The notes beneath the pieces were generated by a model that was given only the letters and a program-made list of their open reading frames with translations, was not told the origin of the DNA and did no database searches. DNA of 48,100 nucleotides from a virus. Shown here piece after piece: positions 2,743 to 27,894 of the stretch. Numbering within the stretch: the stretch's first letter is position 1; each line of letters opens with the position of its first letter. The DNA is taken from the IMG/VR virus record IMGVR_UViG_3300001102_000009, positions 1 through 48,100 of that record; one strand, written 5' to 3'. Position numbers and translations under genes: made by a program.

Positions 2743-3321
2743 TTAGAAGCCTTTTGCTGCTTCTTGCTCGGCTTTAATCCCAATGTATTTCTCACGAGAT
2801 TTAGGGTCGTCTTGCAAATCAATTTTTCCTGACTCAACATCTTTAACAAAAGATTCCTTAGATTGGAATGTTTCGATCTCGATTGGAGAGTCGTCAATCA
2901 TATCATCTGATTTAGATAGCTCACGTTTTGCGTTAATGTGTGCTAGAAAACCAGGGTTAGCCGCAACTTCTTCCAGGGTTGTACCGAATGACGTACCAAT
3001 AAATGACTGTCCTTCCTTGATTTCTTCTAGCGAAAATTGCTTAGAAAGGTTTGCAATCACATACTGATCATCAAGCGATGCTGGTTCTGCTGCTGCTGGT
3101 TCTGGGGTGATAACTGGTTCTACAACTGGTTCTGCTGCCGGTTCAGGTTCTACTGGTGTGGGCTTACTTTTGAGCTTGCTCACTAGCTTCTTCTGATCTC
3201 CAAACGCCTTAGCGTTCTTTGCTGCGTACTCTTCCAATTCTTCACGGGTCATCGCTGTTAGATCGACCGGCTGGTCTTCATTTGCGCCGTCTAACACTTC
3301 GACGTTTTCTTCTTTTTCCAT
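2743..3321 (-). CDS. Scaffolding protein (putative)
   Basis: 192 aa, highly acidic and Pro/Ala/Glu-rich (PTPVEPEPAAEPVVEPVITPEPAAAEP), lying between the portal region and the capsid gene. It is preceded by a consensus promoter. Confidence 0.5.
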   Translation of the reverse strand: MEKEENVEVLDGANEDQPVDLTAMTREELEEYAAKNAKAFGDQKKLVSKLKSKPTPVEPEPAAEPVVEPVITPEPAAAEPASLDDQYVIANLSKQFSLEEIKEGQSFIGTSFGTTLEEVAANPGFLAHINAKRELSKSDDMIDDSPIEIETFQSKESFVKDVESGKIDLQDDPKSREKYIGIKAEQEAAKGF

Positions 3322-8631: not shown

Positions 8632-9099
8632 CTAATCAATTACATACTCATAAGGTTCTTCAATGTGGGTGATCTCAATCTCTATTCGTGGATCAGATCG
8701 TTGCAGGTAGAACTCTGATTCTGTCTTGTAGACGTATTTGTCGTTGTCAATCAGTCCCGCCTCTTCTATTCCGTCGAGTGCCATCTTTTCCATTGCGGAT
8801 CGTATGTTGTGCCCATCCGTTCCAAGTCGTCCGGCATAAACACGGTACTTAACATTGAATCCATGTCCGTGGTTGGGATCCCATCCAGGATTTTCTGATA
8901 GGATTCGTTCCTTACTATCGACAATTCGTTCATGTATTAGTTTCTTAATCTGGGCTACCCCTGTGGTGTGTTTACCACCTCTTTTAAAAACGTTAGATGC
9001 TGTCGTATACCAATTCAGACCCAGCAGTGCATCCTTACGGGTGCGGGGCATGTAGTCCTTTTTGTATATAGGCATTGTTATCTTGAGACAGTTTGACAT
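8632..9099 (-). CDS. RusA-like endodeoxyribonuclease (possible Holliday-junction resolvase)
   Basis: TDGHNIRSAMEKMALDGIEEAGLIDNDKYV resembles the RusA core [27 protein letters not shown]. The second catalytic Asp position is His here, so the assignment is tentative. Confidence 0.4.
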   Translation of the reverse strand: MSNCLKITMPIYKKDYMPRTRKDALLGLNWYTTASNVFKRGGKHTTGVAQIKKLIHERIVDSKERILSENPGWDPNHGHGFNVKYRVYAGRLGTDGHNIRSAMEKMALDGIEEAGLIDNDKYVYKTESEFYLQRSDPRIEIEITHIEEPYEYVID

Positions 9100-9525
9100 C
9101 TATTGTTTGTATTATTTAATATTTTGTCGTACCGACATGTACGTAAACCGAAGTTTACTTCCAGGTACAGCGCGGCCCATCCCTTAAAAGAAAGAAGAGA
9201 TGGTGCTTGTGAGACACGATTAAGTATATAGCTATCTTACTCAATCCTCTCAATATGATACATATAGGATAGTACTAACACTCAGACTCCCTCCTGATAA
9301 CACCACCTTCCGGCGTAAGATCTTAAGACATAGTTATCATTCTTTTTATCTGTTGCTTTCTCTACCTTTGGTCAACATACGGCGCAGATCTAATGGTTCA
9401 GTAGGATGGGCCAAACTATTTTCCTGAACGATTTCATCTGCGTCTTATGCGGGCCTTATTTGGAATTTCGAGGATGTTTTACATGTTTCCCCGCTATACA
9501 TGGTTTTATATGTATATATAACTAT
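9100..9525 (-). ncRNA. About 420-nt ORF-free leader or candidate structured RNA between a consensus promoter and the first gene of the minus-strand arm
   Basis: No ORF longer than about 18 codons lies on the transcribed strand. There is a UUCG-capped 6-bp hairpin (gtaaac-uucg-guuuac, 9158..9143) and a 10-bp long-range complement (9412..9403 with 9183..9174). Confidence 0.35.
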
Positions 9526-9530
9526 TAGCT

Positions 9531-9559
9531 ATACTATCATATTATTGACCCATTGTCAA
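9531..9559 (-). promoter_or_regulatory. Sigma70-like promoter, cacacTTGACA-N17-TAGTAT
   Basis: The -35 is at 9559..9554 and the -10 at 9536..9531 on the minus strand, the same architecture as at 3401, 13564 and 14206. Confidence 0.55.
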
Positions 9560-10250
9560 GTGTGATGTGTGCTAATATACCCTTGTTTTACGCACTATTT
9601 ATTTTAGTTGACTGGGATTTCCCACTTTCGGCGATTTATCCTTACTTTTATGGGGGATTTCCCACTTTCGGCGACCCACCTTTCAGGCGATTTTGACTCT
9701 AATTTGCAAACCATTTGCATTACTATTTTCTGTTACTTTTATTTTTTTCTCAAATTTTTGGGGCGGGGAAGTGGTAGCCACCACCTATATGTATACGACC
9801 CCCACATCGAGGATATCCCACCCCCTCCACACCACACAATCTCAGCAAGTCAAGTGGTATGCACCCCACCACGTTATTGTTTTGGTGTCAAGTTTGACGT
9901 CCCGTCAATTTCCCAATCATAGATTGCTCAAGTTTAACGACCACTTGGCTCCCCACCACATTGTAGCCCCATGTGTGGGTGATCCATGTGGTGGGTGGTC
10001 CAAATACGTACATTTATAGCCAATTGGTGAAATAACGAGGCTCTGTGGTCCATTCTAAGCGGTTTAAATAAGTGTTGCCTACCCAAAGTACCTGTAAAAT
10101 GGGGTTGGAGGGGAGGGGTGGGGAGGAAGACTTAGATTGCCCACCCACCACATACACAGCCCACATTGCATACCTATCTGCCACCCGCCACCATGTATAT
10201 AGAATCACGACATAATGTCACAGTTATACACAGGTATTGTCGTGATTCGG
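9560..10250. promoter_or_regulatory. Divergent control region and candidate replication origin (direct repeats, AT-rich tract, CCACAT/ATGTGG boxes, G4 motif, inverted repeat)
   Basis: This is about 0.7 kb with no credible ORF at the point where the two transcription arms diverge. Individual elements are listed in the findings. Confidence 0.4.
9614..9674 (+). repeat. Two perfect 21-bp direct repeats, gggatttcccactttcggcga, spaced 40 bp start to start
   Basis: The copies are at 9614-9634 and 9654-9674. A third partial copy, ctttcaggcgatttt, lies at about 9680-9694. Confidence 0.9.
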
Positions 10251-10278
10251 TTGCACATCCATGTGGTTGTGATAGTAT
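10251..10278 (+). promoter_or_regulatory. Early promoter, TTGCAC-N16-TAGTAT, with an ATGTGG box in the spacer
   Basis: The -35 is at 10251-10256 and the -10 at 10273-10278, about 30 nt upstream of the first plus-strand ORF. Confidence 0.5.
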
Positions 10279-10307
10279 ATAAGTGTAGGCAATAGTCTAC
10301 TTAATAG

Positions 10308-11714: not shown

Positions 11715-11855
11715 ATGAGATTCACACAAACAGACCACGACGAAAGACGAGACCCCGAAGACGTAATATACGGTGACTACTTACCAGATTGCAACGGAGA
11801 TGGTATCTCCCTATCATGGTGGGCAATGTTAAAACCATCTTTCTGTAAGGACTAG
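11715..11855 (+). CDS. Hypothetical small protein (46 aa)
   Basis: An ATG..TAG ORF fills the gap: MRFTQTDHDERRDPEDVIYGDYLPDCNGDGISLSWWAMLKPSFCKD. Confidence 0.3.
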   Translation: MRFTQTDHDERRDPEDVIYGDYLPDCNGDGISLSWWAMLKPSFCKD

Positions 11856-12553: not shown

Positions 12554-12580
12554 GAAAAAGCCCCCATTTGGGGGTCTTTT
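12554..12580. terminator. Bidirectional rho-independent terminator
   Basis: The sequence is aaaaag-ccccc-attt-ggggg-tctttt, lying between convergent ORFs (12531 plus, 12590 minus). Confidence 0.6.
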
Positions 12581-12589
12581 CTATGTAAT

Positions 12590-12919
12590 TTATTCCTCGA
12601 TAGGACTTGGTAATTCCTCTAAGTACCTAACATCAATTGTTTTCTTCTCTAGGTACAGCGCTTTTGCTAGTCTATGTTTACCATCCATAACAAAACCACG
12701 GTAGATAAGTATAGGGTGTTTGAGGTCTGCGTTTAACACTCTCTTCATCTCCTCTACAAAGTCACTTAGGTCGCCATGCTCACCCATGAGATTGAAATGT
12801 CTATATATAGATTTGGGATCAACCTTTTCTGTTTTCACTTCCCTTGCAACATCTATTAGGGCACTCACGTGGTACAATTCACCCGCGTACCACTGTCTTT
12901 GTCTGTGTGTTTCTGGCAT
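12590..12919 (-). CDS. ParB-like nuclease-domain protein (putative)
   Basis: 109 aa. HPILIYRGFVMDGKHRLAKALYL resembles the ParB N-terminal / sulfiredoxin motif (I..DG.HR..A). Confidence 0.45.
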   Translation of the reverse strand: MPETHRQRQWYAGELYHVSALIDVAREVKTEKVDPKSIYRHFNLMGEHGDLSDFVEEMKRVLNADLKHPILIYRGFVMDGKHRLAKALYLEKKTIDVRYLEELPSPIEE

Positions 12920-12933
12920 GTTTATATAATTAT

Positions 12934-13029
12934 TGACAATGGCGGGACTCGAACCCGCGCAAGGACTACCATTTAAAGAAACGTGAGTTTCATGGATTTG
13001 ATACCACTTCGCATTACGCCAACATTGTC
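12934..13029 (-). ncRNA. tRNA-like element with canonical acceptor stem and T-arm but no recognisable anticodon arm (96 nt)
   Basis: On the minus strand it reads GACAATG...GCGGG-TTCGAGT-CCCGC-CATTGTC-A. There are 64 nt between the acceptor 5' strand and the T-stem, where about 41 is expected. No 5-bp stem with a 7-nt loop fits in any register. The internal hairpin GAAAC-TCAC-GTTTC is at 12991..12978. Confidence 0.5.
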
Positions 13030-13529
13030 ATGTTTAGATATTAACTGTTGGGGAGGATTCAGGTACTATTGGCGAGGTAAATTACTCCTCTTTCTGACCT
13101 GGCCAGTTGCCGCATAAGTTTAGACAACCCCATTGAACCGCATGACTTAACTTCGGAACCCATTGGAACCCCCCAACAAATAACATCCTATCGCCTGCAT
13201 TTCTTCTGCCATCTTCAAGTCCCGCTGCGGACGGGGTAGCACCCCATGGTCTTACATTTAATTTGCAGGCGGCAAGATACTATCTTACCCTTATCTCCCA
13301 CCACATATTCCACCCCCGATGGGTTGGCCCTCGCCGTTGGAGCCGCTAAACTCCTCCATCAATCCCTAGATATACACTGGTTATATTGTGTTAACTTTCG
13401 GGAAGCCGTGTCTTTACCGTTAGGTGAGGTAACTATCCTCGATCACGCACCTTATCGTCGGGTATATCAGCCTCTTAGATTATTCGGTCACGGGGCAGAA
13501 TATGTAGTGTGAGTTTTACCTCGCATCTG
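13030..13529 (-). ncRNA. Candidate large structured non-coding RNA (about 500 nt) transcribed from the 13564 promoter, contiguous with the tRNA-like element
   Basis: Stops are dense in all three minus-strand frames. Several 8-10-bp long-range complements and local hairpins are present (see findings). Confidence 0.4.
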
Positions 13530-13535
13530 TTCCCT

Positions 13536-13564
13536 ATATTACACTAGTGTCCATTTTATGTCAA
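13536..13564 (-). promoter_or_regulatory. Sigma70-like promoter, cacacTTGACA-N17-TAATAT
   Basis: The -35 is at 13564..13559 and the -10 at 13541..13536 on the minus strand. Confidence 0.55.
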
Positions 13565-13595
13565 GTGTGTTTTTTGTTATGACACAATTACATAT

Positions 13596-14171
13596 TTAAT
13601 CAACTGCGTATTCCCACTGGAAGCCTGCTGATGATTTTGTTTTTCCTTTTAGTGCACAACTGATACTAGAATTTGCGGCATTAACTGCCTTAGCAGCCGA
13701 CCCAATGCTTTCAAAAGAATTTATAATTATGCCATTACGTAATTGATTTACCTTTTTTCTTCTACTGACCGCTCCCTTTTTTCTGTTGTAATCCCAGGTA
13801 ACTAATTGTATATTACTGATACTATATCCAGTGGTGTCGTCTAGTCTGTCTGGTGAAGGGGTGTAATTCTTTTTGTAATCTGATTCAACCCATACATTAA
13901 AAAGGTGATCAAAGTTTGGCTGACTAAATAGCCAGTCTCGATACTCCTGTAACGTGAAGTCTGGGTCTGGGTGTCCGCGTTTACGGCTTGCGGCACGCAT
14001 GTGGGCATACATTCTGGTGGAAAGTCCGTATTTTGTTTTGTAAAATTGACGACGACCCTCATCTATTTCTTCTTTTTTTTCCTTATAGCGTTTGCTTGCT
14101 CTTTCCTTGATCTTTTGTTTGTTTGCTTGGTAGTACTCTGCTTTGTACTCCTTCATGGTTTGTTTGCTCAT
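13596..14171 (-). CDS. HNH-type homing endonuclease with a C-terminal NUMOD/IENR-like DNA-binding tail (putative)
   Basis: It has an N-terminal basic KEYKAEYYQANKQKIKERASKRYKEKK repeat, the core SPDRLDDTTGYSISNIQLVTWDYNRKKG, and the tail ESIGSAAKAVNAANSSISCALKGKTKSSAGFQWEY. The start was set at the ATG at 14171. Confidence 0.55.
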   Translation of the reverse strand: MSKQTMKEYKAEYYQANKQKIKERASKRYKEKKEEIDEGRRQFYKTKYGLSTRMYAHMRAASRKRGHPDPDFTLQEYRDWLFSQPNFDHLFNVWVESDYKKNYTPSPDRLDDTTGYSISNIQLVTWDYNRKKGAVSRRKKVNQLRNGIIINSFESIGSAAKAVNAANSSISCALKGKTKSSAGFQWEYAVD

Positions 14172-14177
14172 GACCAA

Positions 14178-14206
14178 ATACTATCATATTTTAGATTTTA
14201 TGTCAA
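14178..14206 (-). promoter_or_regulatory. Sigma70-like promoter, cacacTTGACA-N17-TAGTAT, whose -10 ends 6 nt before the HNH ATG (leaderless-type arrangement)
   Basis: The -35 is at 14206..14201 and the -10 at 14183..14178, with the ATG at 14171. Confidence 0.5.
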
Positions 14207-22641: not shown

Positions 22642-22733
22642 TCACAGCACTAAACTTACTTACCCTTTGTGGGTAGGTAATAGTGGGGGAGTAGTTTTCT
22701 CCACTATTACTTGCCCACAAATAACATTACTTT

Positions 22734-25841: not shown

Positions 25842-26092
25842 TATGCGACAAACTAGGCACAGAGATTAAGGAGGGTTCTATTATTGCTTATACAACCCGA
25901 AACAGTGAACAAATCAAGGTTGGTCGTGTCAAGGGTTTTGGTCGAGAGGAGTTTCGCTGGGGAGGTGTAGATAAGGTTCTTGTTCATGGCCTAAAAGACT
26001 CTAAGCCAGGTTACACCTACACAAAAAGAGTATTAGTTCTAATTGGAGATTATTATGTTCAAAAAGTATCCCAAGATTCACAGACTGGGTAA
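25838..26092 (+). CDS. Hypothetical protein
   Basis: 84-aa ORF with an ATGA overlap. Confidence 0.5.
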   Translation: MICDKLGTEIKEGSIIAYTTRNSEQIKVGRVKGFGREEFRWGGVDKVLVHGLKDSKPGYTYTKRVLVLIGDYYVQKVSQDSQTG

Positions 26093-27089
26093 AGAAGAAA
26101 CAGACGGCATCCTATTTGGTGAAGTACATGTTGAAGAAAAGATTGATGGGGCAAATGCTAGTATTTGGATGGAAGATGGAGCTATCTGTATTGGATCACG
26201 CAACAACAAACTGACGTCAGATGTTCTAAATCCAAAAGAGGGTGACAACTACTTTAATGGATTCCTTGAGTATGTAGCTGGACACGAAGGTATCCAGTCA
26301 TTGCTCAAAGATTCACCAGACCTTCGGTTGTGCGGTGAGTGGTTGGTTAAGCACTCAATCGCCTACGATTCAACCAAGATGAACAAGTTTTATTTGTTCG
26401 ATATCACAACCGCAACAGATGAAGAGGGGGAAGAAGAATATCTACCCAAGTTCATGGTTCACAAGGCGGGTCGTGCGTACGATATTGAAACACCTGAATA
26501 TCACGGAAGTTTTGAAAATCCAACACTTGAGCAAATCATGGAGTTTGTCGGTAAGTCAGCAATTGGTGACGAGGGGGAGGGTGTAGTGTTGAAGAATCCA
26601 AAGTTTGTTAATGTATTTGGTGACCACTGTTATGGCAAGATCGTTACTGAAAACTTTAAAGAAAAGAATGGTATTGTATTTGGCGGCAACAATAAACACA
26701 GTGATAGTTACTGTGAGATGTGGATTGCAAACAAGTATATTACACTAGCGAGGGTTGAGAAGGTAATGCAGAAGCTGCAACCAACACTTGATCGTCGGCT
26801 ACATCTGCAACACATTCCACTGGTTATCAAGGCGGTGTATCAGGACATGTTGACTGAGGAGATTTGGGAGATTGTTAACAACCTACCCGGCACACCAGCT
26901 ACCCCAAACCCAACGATTAAGATTAAGACCTTGAACCGGATCGTCAGCCGGAAGATTGTACAGATCTACAAAGATATATTAAATAACAGCATTAGCGTTG
27001 CTGACCAGTTTCAGCCGGGATTAAAACAAAATCAAAATGTCGAAACTAATAATGATGAAGGGGCTTCCAGCATCGGGGAAATCCACTAG
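26055..27089 (+). CDS. ATP-dependent RNA ligase, Rnl2-like nucleotidyltransferase
   Basis: The N-terminus MFKKYPKIH resembles T4 Rnl2 MFKKYSSLEN. Motif I is EEKIDGANASIW (KxDG) and motif IV-like is EGVVLKNP. Confidence 0.65.
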   Translation: MFKKYPKIHRLGKEETDGILFGEVHVEEKIDGANASIWMEDGAICIGSRNNKLTSDVLNPKEGDNYFNGFLEYVAGHEGIQSLLKDSPDLRLCGEWLVKHSIAYDSTKMNKFYLFDITTATDEEGEEEYLPKFMVHKAGRAYDIETPEYHGSFENPTLEQIMEFVGKSAIGDEGEGVVLKNPKFVNVFGDHCYGKIVTENFKEKNGIVFGGNNKHSDSYCEMWIANKYITLARVEKVMQKLQPTLDRRLHLQHIPLVIKAVYQDMLTEEIWEIVNNLPGTPATPNPTIKIKTLNRIVSRKIVQIYKDILNNSISVADQFQPGLKQNQNVETNNDEGASSIGEIH

Positions 27090-27894
27090 AGCCAAGGAAA
27101 TAGTTGATGGCGGAGGCAACTTCGTCCGTCTCAACCGTGATCTTTTGCGGAAGATGTTGCACTTTGATCGGTGGACAGGGAAGAATGAGGGGGTTACGAT
27201 TAAGACGCAGGAGTTAATGGCAGAACAACTGCTTAATAGTGGCAAGAATGTTATCATAGATGACACAAACATGAGTGAAGACCACGACGCAAGGTGGGCA
27301 TATGTTGCGGAAAGCCTTGGGGCAAGGTTTGAAATCGAACACATCGACACCCCAATGAACGATTGCATCCTCCGTGACCACGACCGTTGGGATTCTGTCG
27401 GAGAAGCTGTAATCAAAAACATGGCAATGCAATACAACATGTTCCCAGACCTGGAAAACATCGTAGTGGTTGACATAGACGGAACTGTAGCTGACTGTTC
27501 ACATCGGCAGCATCATGTAAGGGGTGATAAGAAAGATTGGAAAGCCTTCTTTGCTGGGATGAGTGACGACACACCGCGCCGGGATGTTTGGAGTGATGCC
27601 TACGGTCTTGCAGAAGAAAACAATGCTCGTATCATATTTGTATCAGCACGACCAGAAGACTACCGTGAGGTGACTGAGGAGTGGTTGGGTTGGATGCAAA
27701 TGCACCACGCCCACCTACTCATGCGCCGATCAGGTGATAAACGACCAGACACAGAAGTAAAGTCTGACATCTACGACAAGTACTTGTCACACTACAACAT
27801 TATCAAAGTCTTTGACGACCGACCATCTGTCATCCAAATGTGGCGTGACAAGGGGTTAGATGTGGAGGACGTGGGGGAGGGAATAGATTTCTAG
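27037..27894 (+). CDS. Polynucleotide 5'-kinase / 3'-phosphatase (T4 Pnkp-like)
   Basis: The N-terminal P-loop is MKGLPASGKSTRA. The C-terminal HAD phosphatase motif is VVVDIDGTV (DxDxT), with a later FDDRP. Confidence 0.8.
   Translation: MSKLIMMKGLPASGKSTRAKEIVDGGGNFVRLNRDLLRKMLHFDRWTGKNEGVTIKTQELMAEQLLNSGKNVIIDDTNMSEDHDARWAYVAESLGARFEIEHIDTPMNDCILRDHDRWDSVGEAVIKNMAMQYNMFPDLENIVVVDIDGTVADCSHRQHHVRGDKKDWKAFFAGMSDDTPRRDVWSDAYGLAEENNARIIFVSARPEDYREVTEEWLGWMQMHHAHLLMRRSGDKRPDTEVKSDIYDKYLSHYNIIKVFDDRPSVIQMWRDKGLDVEDVGEGIDF

Follow-up and report, generated by a model that had tools for sequence, protein, structure and literature searches.

We examined a 676-nt gap between two genes on the minus strand of virus record IMGVR_UViG_3300001102_000009, which holds a promoter motif, some 500 nt lacking coding potential, long strand-biased helices and, at its 3' end, a tRNA-like module that abuts a 109-aa open reading frame (ORF). 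The window, meaning the whole stretch of 48,100 nucleotides that was analysed, is a complete phage genome of ~48,051 bp whose first 49 nt are repeated at its end. Three copies of the genome were found, all identical (marine macroalgal-surface metagenome from Botany Bay, JGI 3300000970, contig BBAY66_10000340; Logan assembly SRR2835670). The phage encodes a portal, a large terminase, an SU10-type adaptor, a DnaB-like helicase, the small subunit of ribonucleotide reductase (nrdB), a homing endonuclease of the HNH/NUMOD type, an RNA ligase, a polynucleotide kinase-phosphatase and five tRNAs. Its terminase is ~25% identical to those of Cellulophaga, Flavobacterium and Bacteroides phages, and a Shine-Dalgarno motif precedes only 2 of its 45 genes, the other 43 being without one.

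The order on the minus strand is nrdB (15314-14238), the endonuclease gene (14177-13596), the gap (13595-12920), the 109-aa ORF (12919-12590) and a terminator (12575-12560). The gap is gene-free, whereas the other genes of the genome are nearly contiguous, and it is a real, well-delimited and unusual noncoding locus. A split nrdB or an intron was considered and rejected, since nrdB is full length when compared with its homologues and no exon is interrupted. The features of the locus, given in the order in which the minus strand is read and in positions of the window, are as follows, the domains and helices being predicted.

13596..14177, minus strand: free-standing homing-endonuclease gene of HNH/NUMOD type with its own promoter, forming the upstream context
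13536..13564, minus strand: sigma-70-type promoter TTGACA-N17-TAATAT, matching 10 of 12 consensus positions, with a predicted transcription start near 13529
13515..13524, minus strand: 5' tail GCGAGGUAAA, the 5' strand of a candidate 10-bp pseudoknot helix, P1 (100% complementary; duplex -14.4 kcal/mol)
13295..13513, minus strand: domain A, ~175 nt with several hairpins, enclosed by a closing helix (13513-13492 / 13316-13295)
13271..13289, minus strand: hairpin B, GGUAAGAU-AGU-AUCUUGCC, 8 bp, probability 0.95
13193..13270, minus strand: domain C, a 7-bp closing helix GCCUGCA/UGCAGGC with hairpins GGGGU-GCU-ACCCC and GUCC-GCAGCG-GGAC (probabilities 0.71, 0.95 and 0.71)
13036..13188, minus strand: domain D, ~113 nt with three hairpins, enclosed by an 8+11-bp closing helix (13188-13169 / 13055-13036)
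13030..13035, minus strand: 6-nt linker AAACAU, in which U13030 is nucleotide -1 of a predicted RNase P site
12934..13029, minus strand: tRNA-like module of 96 nt, with acceptor stem 13029-13023 / 12941-12935, T-arm 12958-12942 and discriminator A12934
12920..12933, minus strand: A/U-rich spacer of 14 nt before the start codon, as is usual for start regions of this genome, which lack a Shine-Dalgarno motif
12590..12919, minus strand: 109-aa ORF, PHROG 17560, possibly of a ParB/sulfiredoxin fold
12560..12575, both strands: bidirectional intrinsic terminator, which closes the transcription unit

Promoter and noncoding character of the gap

A preliminary description of this DNA, made from the sequence alone, had placed a consensus promoter at 13564..13536 of the minus strand, and this is borne out both by the match itself and by the enrichment of the motif type: TTGACA-N16-18-TANNAT occurs 8 times in the genome where 0.57 occurrences are expected (14-fold), and none of 100 shuffled sequences reached 8. 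A twin of the promoter, with TTGACATAAAAT common to both, stands in a similar position before the homing-endonuclease gene, at 14206..14178. In this second promoter (14171-14206, minus strand) the -10 box ends at 14178, directly abutting a TTG (14177) and only 7 nt from an ATG (14171), and the endonuclease message may therefore be leaderless. With regard to the host, the scarcity of Shine-Dalgarno motifs and the Bacteroidota-phage relatives of the terminase point one way, and the 14-fold enriched sigma-70 consensus promoters (TTGACA-N17-TAnnAT) conflict with them.

The same description held that the stretch behind the promoter was free of credible ORFs, which stop counts and family searches confirm. 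Across 12920-13596 the three minus-strand frames carry 18, 14 and 11 stop codons per 225 codons, the longest minus-strand ORF in the gap is 34 aa, and translation in all six frames gives no Pfam or PHROGs match at E<=1. A plus-strand ORF of 88 aa, which had already looked spurious, has no Pfam match and no relative among 5.8 billion proteins. A protein gene or pseudogene is accordingly rejected; no intact ORF was met at this position in a relative, yet no relatives exist for a proper test. The base composition of the gap also differs from its surroundings, with a G+C content of 0.47-0.50 across 13000-13449 against ~0.38-0.42 in the flanks and with more G than C on the minus strand; its G+C content comes close to that of the tRNA cluster region (0.50-0.54).

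Anatomy of the tRNA-like module

The 96-nt element at the end of the gap has the composition first described for it. Its acceptor stem, GACAATG/CATTGTC, consists of 7 perfect base pairs, and the T-arm GCGGG-TTCGAGT-CCCGC is stacked directly on it; exactly 64 nt separate the acceptor stem from the T-stem. This interval contains a D-loop-like AAGUGGUA and, where an anticodon arm would be, the hairpin GAAAC-UCAC-GUUUC, whereas neither a D-stem nor a 5-bp stem with a 7-nt loop is found in these 64 nt in any register, the only candidate hairpin having a loop of 4 nt. Of the parts of a tRNA, the module thus has the 7-bp acceptor stem, the discriminator base and the T-arm (5-bp stem, TTCRANY loop), and it lacks the D-arm (3-4-bp stem) and the anticodon arm (5-bp stem, 7-nt loop). 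When the module is folded alone, its acceptor pairs reach probabilities of 0.92-1.0 and its T-stem pairs ~0.9.

Searches with tRNA models recover only the T-arm. The Rfam match covers 18 nt (positions 346-363 of the tmRNA, or transfer-messenger RNA, model) at 16.3 bits, and a covariance model (R1) built from 60 phage tRNAs reaches 17.6 bits with filters off; both are local matches to the T-arm, set against the 29 bits of the Rfam tRNA gathering score, and a full-length tRNA match is not obtained. ARAGORN likewise called no tRNA or tmRNA at default settings, with introns allowed or in tmRNA mode, and none that was credible in mitochondrial mode. At an 80% threshold it returned a contrived Val(cac), with a 17-nt 'intron' placed within a stem, beside obviously spurious calls. 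An ordinary or intron-containing tRNA, which would have undone the preliminary description, is therefore not what lies here: the module is a real tRNA-like element and not a tRNA, and is aberrant beyond doubt. A decayed tRNA array was also considered and rejected, as the phage-tRNA covariance model finds no further tRNA remnant in the gap.

Could the element nevertheless work as an adaptor, either as an odd tRNA or as an aminoacylated tmRNA-like domain? Its acceptor stem, T-arm and discriminator are intact, its sole Rfam match is to the T-arm of tmRNA, and the phage combines tRNAs with an RNA ligase and a polynucleotide kinase-phosphatase, a combination known for tRNA repair. The tRNA-like domain of tmRNA also resembles the module in joining an acceptor stem and T-arm to a D-loop without a D-stem, with another helix in the place of the anticodon arm. 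However, the acceptor stem of tmRNA is made by the 5' and 3' ends of the transcript, where that of the module is local, and pair 3:70 is C-G in the module rather than the G-U that alanyl-tRNA synthetase needs for tmRNA. A tag reading frame was not identified by ARAGORN, which makes no default call at all, and the one hairpin available has the wrong loop size for an anticodon arm. A working adaptor is consequently very improbable. A different precedent is offered by the YrlA-type bacterial Y RNAs, which are noncoding and carry a tRNA-mimicking module with a T-arm and D-loop but no anticodon. There, in contrast to our module, the tRNA-like part is internal and paired with a stem that binds Ro/Rsr; no Rfam match to such RNAs was obtained here, and no Rsr-like domain was found among the ORFs scanned.

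The least probable reading, to which we assign hardly any weight, is that the tRNA-like 3' part is a phage attachment site copying the 3' end of a host tRNA or tmRNA gene. T-arm and 3' acceptor fragments of this kind do occur as partial copies in bacterial genomes. Yet no integrase was found among the ORFs scanned, and the matching 5' acceptor strand is present, which such a site does not need. Moreover, a search of 185,579 species genomes for the T-arm plus 3' acceptor pattern returned 5 loci, and ARAGORN calls a tRNA in none of them.

The likeness of the module to a tRNA is uneven. Its acceptor stem and T-arm are perfect over all their 31 nt, and no tRNA model matches the 64 nt that lie between them. 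In a tRNA these acceptor and T-arm parts are known to be recognised by RNase P, RNase Z and the CCA-adding enzyme, and a perfect top half joined to an unrecognisable remainder argues against even decay of a tRNA gene and for retention of the parts that those enzymes read. The features of a processing substrate are present in the sequence as a 12-bp coaxial acceptor/T-arm stack, a T-loop and a D-loop-like GG, upon which cleavage could act. Position -1 is a U, and CCA is not encoded. The phage's own five tRNAs are likewise without an encoded CCA, so that 3' processing and CCA addition by the host are presumably available.

Long-range helices and the reading of the locus

The evidence from the upstream part of the gap concerns two long helices, for which pair probabilities are 0.93-1.0 (helix A, closing domain A) and 0.93-0.98 (helix D, closing domain D). 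Helix A pairs 21 of its 22 positions (18 Watson-Crick and 3 G-U pairs, with 1 A-G mismatch). Its 18 contiguous pairs exceed the longest stem in all 60 dinucleotide shuffles (mean 11.8, maximum 17) and form the second longest stem in the genome, with one longer hairpin in 318 genomic 600-nt windows. Helix D has 19 pairs, including 4 G-U, and one bulge. Read on the minus strand, the two helices, found by a strand-blind search, contain 7 G-U and 0 A-C oppositions (binomial ~0.008), which favours selection at the RNA level in the orientation of the promoter. All four helices listed in the preliminary description are present at the coordinates it gave, while the strongest, the 22-position helix A, had been missed. 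The 10-bp perfect helix to which it drew attention, P1 (GCGAGGTAAA/TTTACCTCGC), is not unusual in length, being within what the shuffles give by chance (longest stem averaging 11.8). The 3' strand of P1, UUUACCUCGC at 13081-13072, sits within domain D, and because P1 crosses the long helix of that domain it could form only as a pseudoknot. The whole RNA has a minimum free energy (MFE) z-score of -1.85, and domain A, the boundaries of which were chosen after the fact, has one of -2.9. Overall, the intrinsic evidence for long-range RNA structure is modest.

We favour, with somewhat less than even confidence, the reading that the gap encodes a phage noncoding RNA of ~500 nt that RNase P and RNase Z free from the mRNA downstream by cutting at the module. 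That the locus has some function at the RNA level, whether in trans or in cis, is a broader claim and seems more likely than its having none, and a new structured RNA is the probable nature of the region. The promoter motif, the lack of coding potential, the make-up of the module and the strand bias of the long helices are shown; that the locus is transcribed, cleaved at the module, yields a stable RNA and has a function is inferred. Transcription would begin near 13529 from the TTGACA/TAATAT promoter, and the transcript would carry the noncoding RNA first and the 109-aa ORF thereafter. Its first ~500 nt (13529-13030) would fold into three domains closed by long-range helices, with a possible pseudoknot between the extreme 5' tail and domain D. 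The module would retain what the processing enzymes recognise (the acceptor/T-arm stack, the T-loop, the D-loop-like GG, U-1 and the discriminator A), with the decoding half absent, and an element that keeps the end-processing parts without the decoding half most likely serves to direct processing. The predicted RNase P cut falls between U13030 and G13029, and that of RNase Z or an equivalent after A12934. Three products would result: a stable RNA of ~500 nt whose 3' end is defined, a small RNA of tRNA-like form, and an mRNA in which only a short leader precedes the ORF. We can only guess that the body of the RNA serves as a scaffold or decoy during infection.

The preliminary description had proposed such a divergent large RNA, separated from the mRNA by RNase P/Z-type processing. 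The noncoding and G+C-rich character of the stretch, its promoter, its tRNA-like end and its strand-biased helices stand on the side of that proposal, and the lack of an Rfam match, the lack of a homologue and the ordinary folding stability stand against it. Several findings weigh against a processed RNA. In the nested ensemble of the full transcript, the acceptor stem of the module has a probability of 0.01 unless the 5' tail is sequestered. MFE z-scores are ordinary: besides the -1.85 of the whole RNA, a scan of the genome in windows of 200 nt puts the region at ~0, where the background is -0.6 +/- 1.4 and many windows of coding sequence lie far below it; the region as a thermodynamic outlier is thus rejected, its stability not singling it out. 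The genes without Shine-Dalgarno motifs and the Bacteroidota-phage relatives of the terminase suggest a host in which a sigma-70 consensus promoter is unexpected. The homologue of the 109-aa ORF has an ordinary ORF upstream and not an RNA, so that RNA and ORF are not a conserved pair. Finally, no homologue of the RNA was found among the phage records or 162 fetched loci, nor in IMG/VR or the metagenome scan, and the three copies of the genome are identical; no helix is, for want of such homologues, supported by covariation.

The searches behind this last point were made at several levels. Megablast and blastn of the DNA against 50,697 phage records gave no match in near or distant mode, the exact T-arm plus acceptor pattern had none in IMG/VR, and nhmmer with the RNA against the 162 fetched loci and the window returned only self matches. 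The terminase, homing endonuclease, DnaB helicase and 109-aa ORF have no relatives in IMG/VR, and a metagenome scan with the terminase gave a single match of 29 aa. In the neighbourhoods of the closest nrdB genes (59-76% identity) the gene order is different and the RNA is not present.

The downstream gene bears on the principal competing explanation, namely that all 600 nt form a long, structured 5' leader on the mRNA of the 109-aa ORF, cis-regulatory or stabilising in effect, with no separately functional RNA. As had been described, the start of this ORF lies 14 nt past the 3' end of the module. The ORF has one homologue (54% identity) among 5.8 billion proteins, with an invariant GFVMDGKHRLAK motif common to both, and no match to Pfam or to the sequences of the PDB. 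Its AlphaFold model has a pLDDT (predicted local distance difference test) of 54, and 18 of the 19 best Foldseek matches are Srx or ParB-N folds, at E = 0.06-2. The 'ParB-like' label given to it earlier is thereby weakly supported: the motif and the consistent folds suggest it, at E values of at least 0.06 and this pLDDT, while no sequence match in Pfam or the PDB does.

Between 13536 and the ORF no terminator and no further promoter-like site was found, which requires some processing or leader function. An ORF with neither a promoter of its own nor a terminator ahead of it, and with the module abutting its start region, is what a leader would lead one to expect. In such a leader the long helices would be processing or stability elements of the RNase III type, and the module would bind a protein or protect a 5' end and so control translation of the ORF. 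Near-perfect helices of ~20 bp are indeed seen more typically at RNase III sites than in ornate RNAs, and since a strong intergenic hairpin of ~21-26 bp also lies at 22666-22721, such elements occur elsewhere in this genome. Conversely, 600 nt is very long as a leader for a 109-aa ORF in so compact a genome, the homologous ORF elsewhere lacks such a leader, and the helices close multi-hairpin domains instead of forming simple hairpins. We consider a leader unlikely, though a serious contender to the processed RNA.

A further explanation, unlikely and ranked by us just behind the leader, is that the stretch is non-functional or decaying sequence, composed of a degraded tRNA gene and remnants of genes or of a mobile cassette, and transcribed only by read-through. 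The sequence is a singleton with no evidence of conservation, its folding stability is ordinary, aberrant tRNA-like elements are scattered through phage contigs, and a homing-endonuclease gene adjoins it. Decay should, however, strike the acceptor stem and T-arm as it does the rest, and those parts are flawless. A dedicated consensus promoter is retained, and the 7:0 bias of G-U over A-C favours the transcribed strand. No frame bears a trace of a protein family, no further tRNA remnants are found, and lytic phage genomes rarely retain 676 nt of junk.

Few large structured RNAs are known from phages, GOLLD and ROOL among them, and neither what they do nor why they recur beside tRNAs has been explained. 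ROOL averages 581 nt, and both RNAs are found in phages and prophages, often beside tRNAs with which they are possibly co-transcribed (PMC5737381). Our locus resembles them in size range and in its predicted multi-domain structure. It differs in that neither of their Rfam models matches it at E<=10, in that its helices are long and near-perfect, and in that its neighbour is a tRNA-like module without an anticodon arm where theirs is a real tRNA; conserved multistem junctions and pseudoknots are a feature of GOLLD and ROOL, whereas the locus is known from a single sequence. Apart from one chance long noncoding RNA match, a cmscan of 12600-13900 against the 4227 families of Rfam 15 at E<=10 gave the tmRNA T-arm and nothing else. 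Beyond that T-arm, there was no Rfam match to GOLLD, ROOL, tmRNA, group I and II introns, RNase P or HEARO by gathering score or at E<=10. We treat its 'ornate large RNA' as a hypothesis and not as a finding.

The closest functional parallels for the processed RNA lie elsewhere. In mammalian MALAT1-mascRNA and in the tufB tRNA-mRNA co-transcript of E. coli, RNase P and RNase Z cleave a tRNA-shaped element, and the RNAs beside it acquire their ends in this way. The locus is similar in having a tRNA-shaped element 3' of a long RNA and 5' of an mRNA, with processing being predicted by analogy, and it differs from mascRNA in that the latter is a cloverleaf with an anticodon-like arm. Neither in bacteria nor in phages do we know of a noncoding RNA of ~500 nt that ends in a module lacking an anticodon arm. 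It is possible, though we hold it doubtful, that the locus represents a previously unknown class of ~500-nt phage structured RNA whose 3' end is set by an anticodon-less top-half module through host RNase P and RNase Z; as part of that doubtful proposal, the processed locus might be regarded by analogy as a phage counterpart of the MALAT1-mascRNA arrangement, its released RNA would act as a scaffold, decoy or sponge during infection, and its small tRNA-like product could be a decoy for tRNA-binding enzymes or toxins. If this were true, the link of large phage RNAs with tRNAs would gain a concrete and testable reason, in that a tRNA-shaped module would serve purely as a processing signal that ends the large RNA and frees the mRNA. 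Orphan marine phages would then hold RNA classes that comparative methods cannot see for want of relatives. A leader or a decaying sequence would be of local interest only.

Other tRNA-like elements and gene-poor stretches

The T-arm 20-mer of the module is common to 57 IMG/VR loci, of which most are true tRNAs and several are aberrant; another scan yielded more tRNA-like elements that go uncalled. The aberrant elements seen in phage contigs (L113/L138/L130, L157/L159, L161, L081 and a set of 58-63 nt) share the same kind of T-arm, sometimes with the identical 20-mer, together with a 7-bp acceptor, and ARAGORN does not call them. None is like the module beyond the T-arm, and none follows a large gene-free stretch. 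A recurrent architecture of gene-free stretch plus aberrant module is rejected, since these elements sit in short gaps.

Some of the elements are of interest in themselves. Those of 58-63 nt (L114, L118, L121, L124, L126, L129, L132, L141 and L144) have a normal acceptor, D-arm and T-arm and no anticodon arm; their acceptor sequences vary between loci yet stay paired, and they go uncalled by ARAGORN. The five scanned with Rfam (L114, L118, L124, L126 and L144) score 41-52 bits with the tRNA model, unlike the module. L113 (~3010-3101), L138 (~11745-11820) and L130 (minus strand, near 1068-1087) carry a small family of uncalled tRNA-like elements that start with GGGAGTGAAA or GGGGGTGAAA, have GCAACAGG/GCAACGGG in common and end with GAGCGCGGGTTCGAGTCCCGCCAC(T/C)CCC, around a non-tRNA middle of 44-104 nt. 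At L157 (500-590), L159 (7786-7870) and L161 (13005-13100), likewise uncalled, an acceptor stem, AAGTGGTAT and a T-arm surround a non-canonical middle; TAATGCGA is common to L157, L159 and the module of the window, in different order. L081 holds at 12941-13050 on the plus strand a tRNA-like element of 110 nt that ARAGORN does not call, with an 8-bp acceptor stem, a D-arm, an extra arm of ~40 nt and a T-arm, as well as a 5-bp stem with an 8-nt loop, CCTAGTAA, that contains CTA. It lies downstream of a 324-aa nrdB homologue, a 544-aa ORF and a 70-aa ORF.

Stretches without called genes also occur in other contigs: L090 (1429-4124, 2.7 kb) and L085 (3924-5044, 1.1 kb), on contigs of ~48-50 kb whose nrdB is 67-70% identical to that of the window, hold no called gene, tRNA or Rfam match. 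Within the window itself, the genes for the RNA ligase and the polynucleotide kinase-phosphatase are adjacent and overlapping at 26043-27894 on the plus strand. These enzymes are the pair by which phage T4 repairs cleaved tRNAs, and a relevance to a tRNA-mimicking RNA of the same genome is possible. A second gene-poor stretch of ~1.2 kb extends over 9093-10300, with divergent TTGACA promoters at 9093-9122 (plus strand) and 9559-9531 (minus strand). The plus-strand transcript predicted there, 9123-9560, has a fold z-score of -3.46 with none of 100 shuffles as good, the interval 9335-9534 has the lowest fold z-score in the genome (-7.3), and downstream lie two exact 21-nt direct repeats, GGGATTTCCCACTTTCGGCGA (at 9614 and 9654), and repeats of the CCCACCAC type. 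This stretch could encode a further noncoding RNA, or it could serve as a replication origin or in regulation. The intergenic hairpin at 22666-22721 on the plus strand, the longest in the genome, lies between two ORFs and has 21-nt arms that are 90% complementary (26 pairs when G-U is included) around a 14-nt loop; its 200-nt window has a z-score of -4.6, and an RNase III site and a terminator-like element are possible identities for it.

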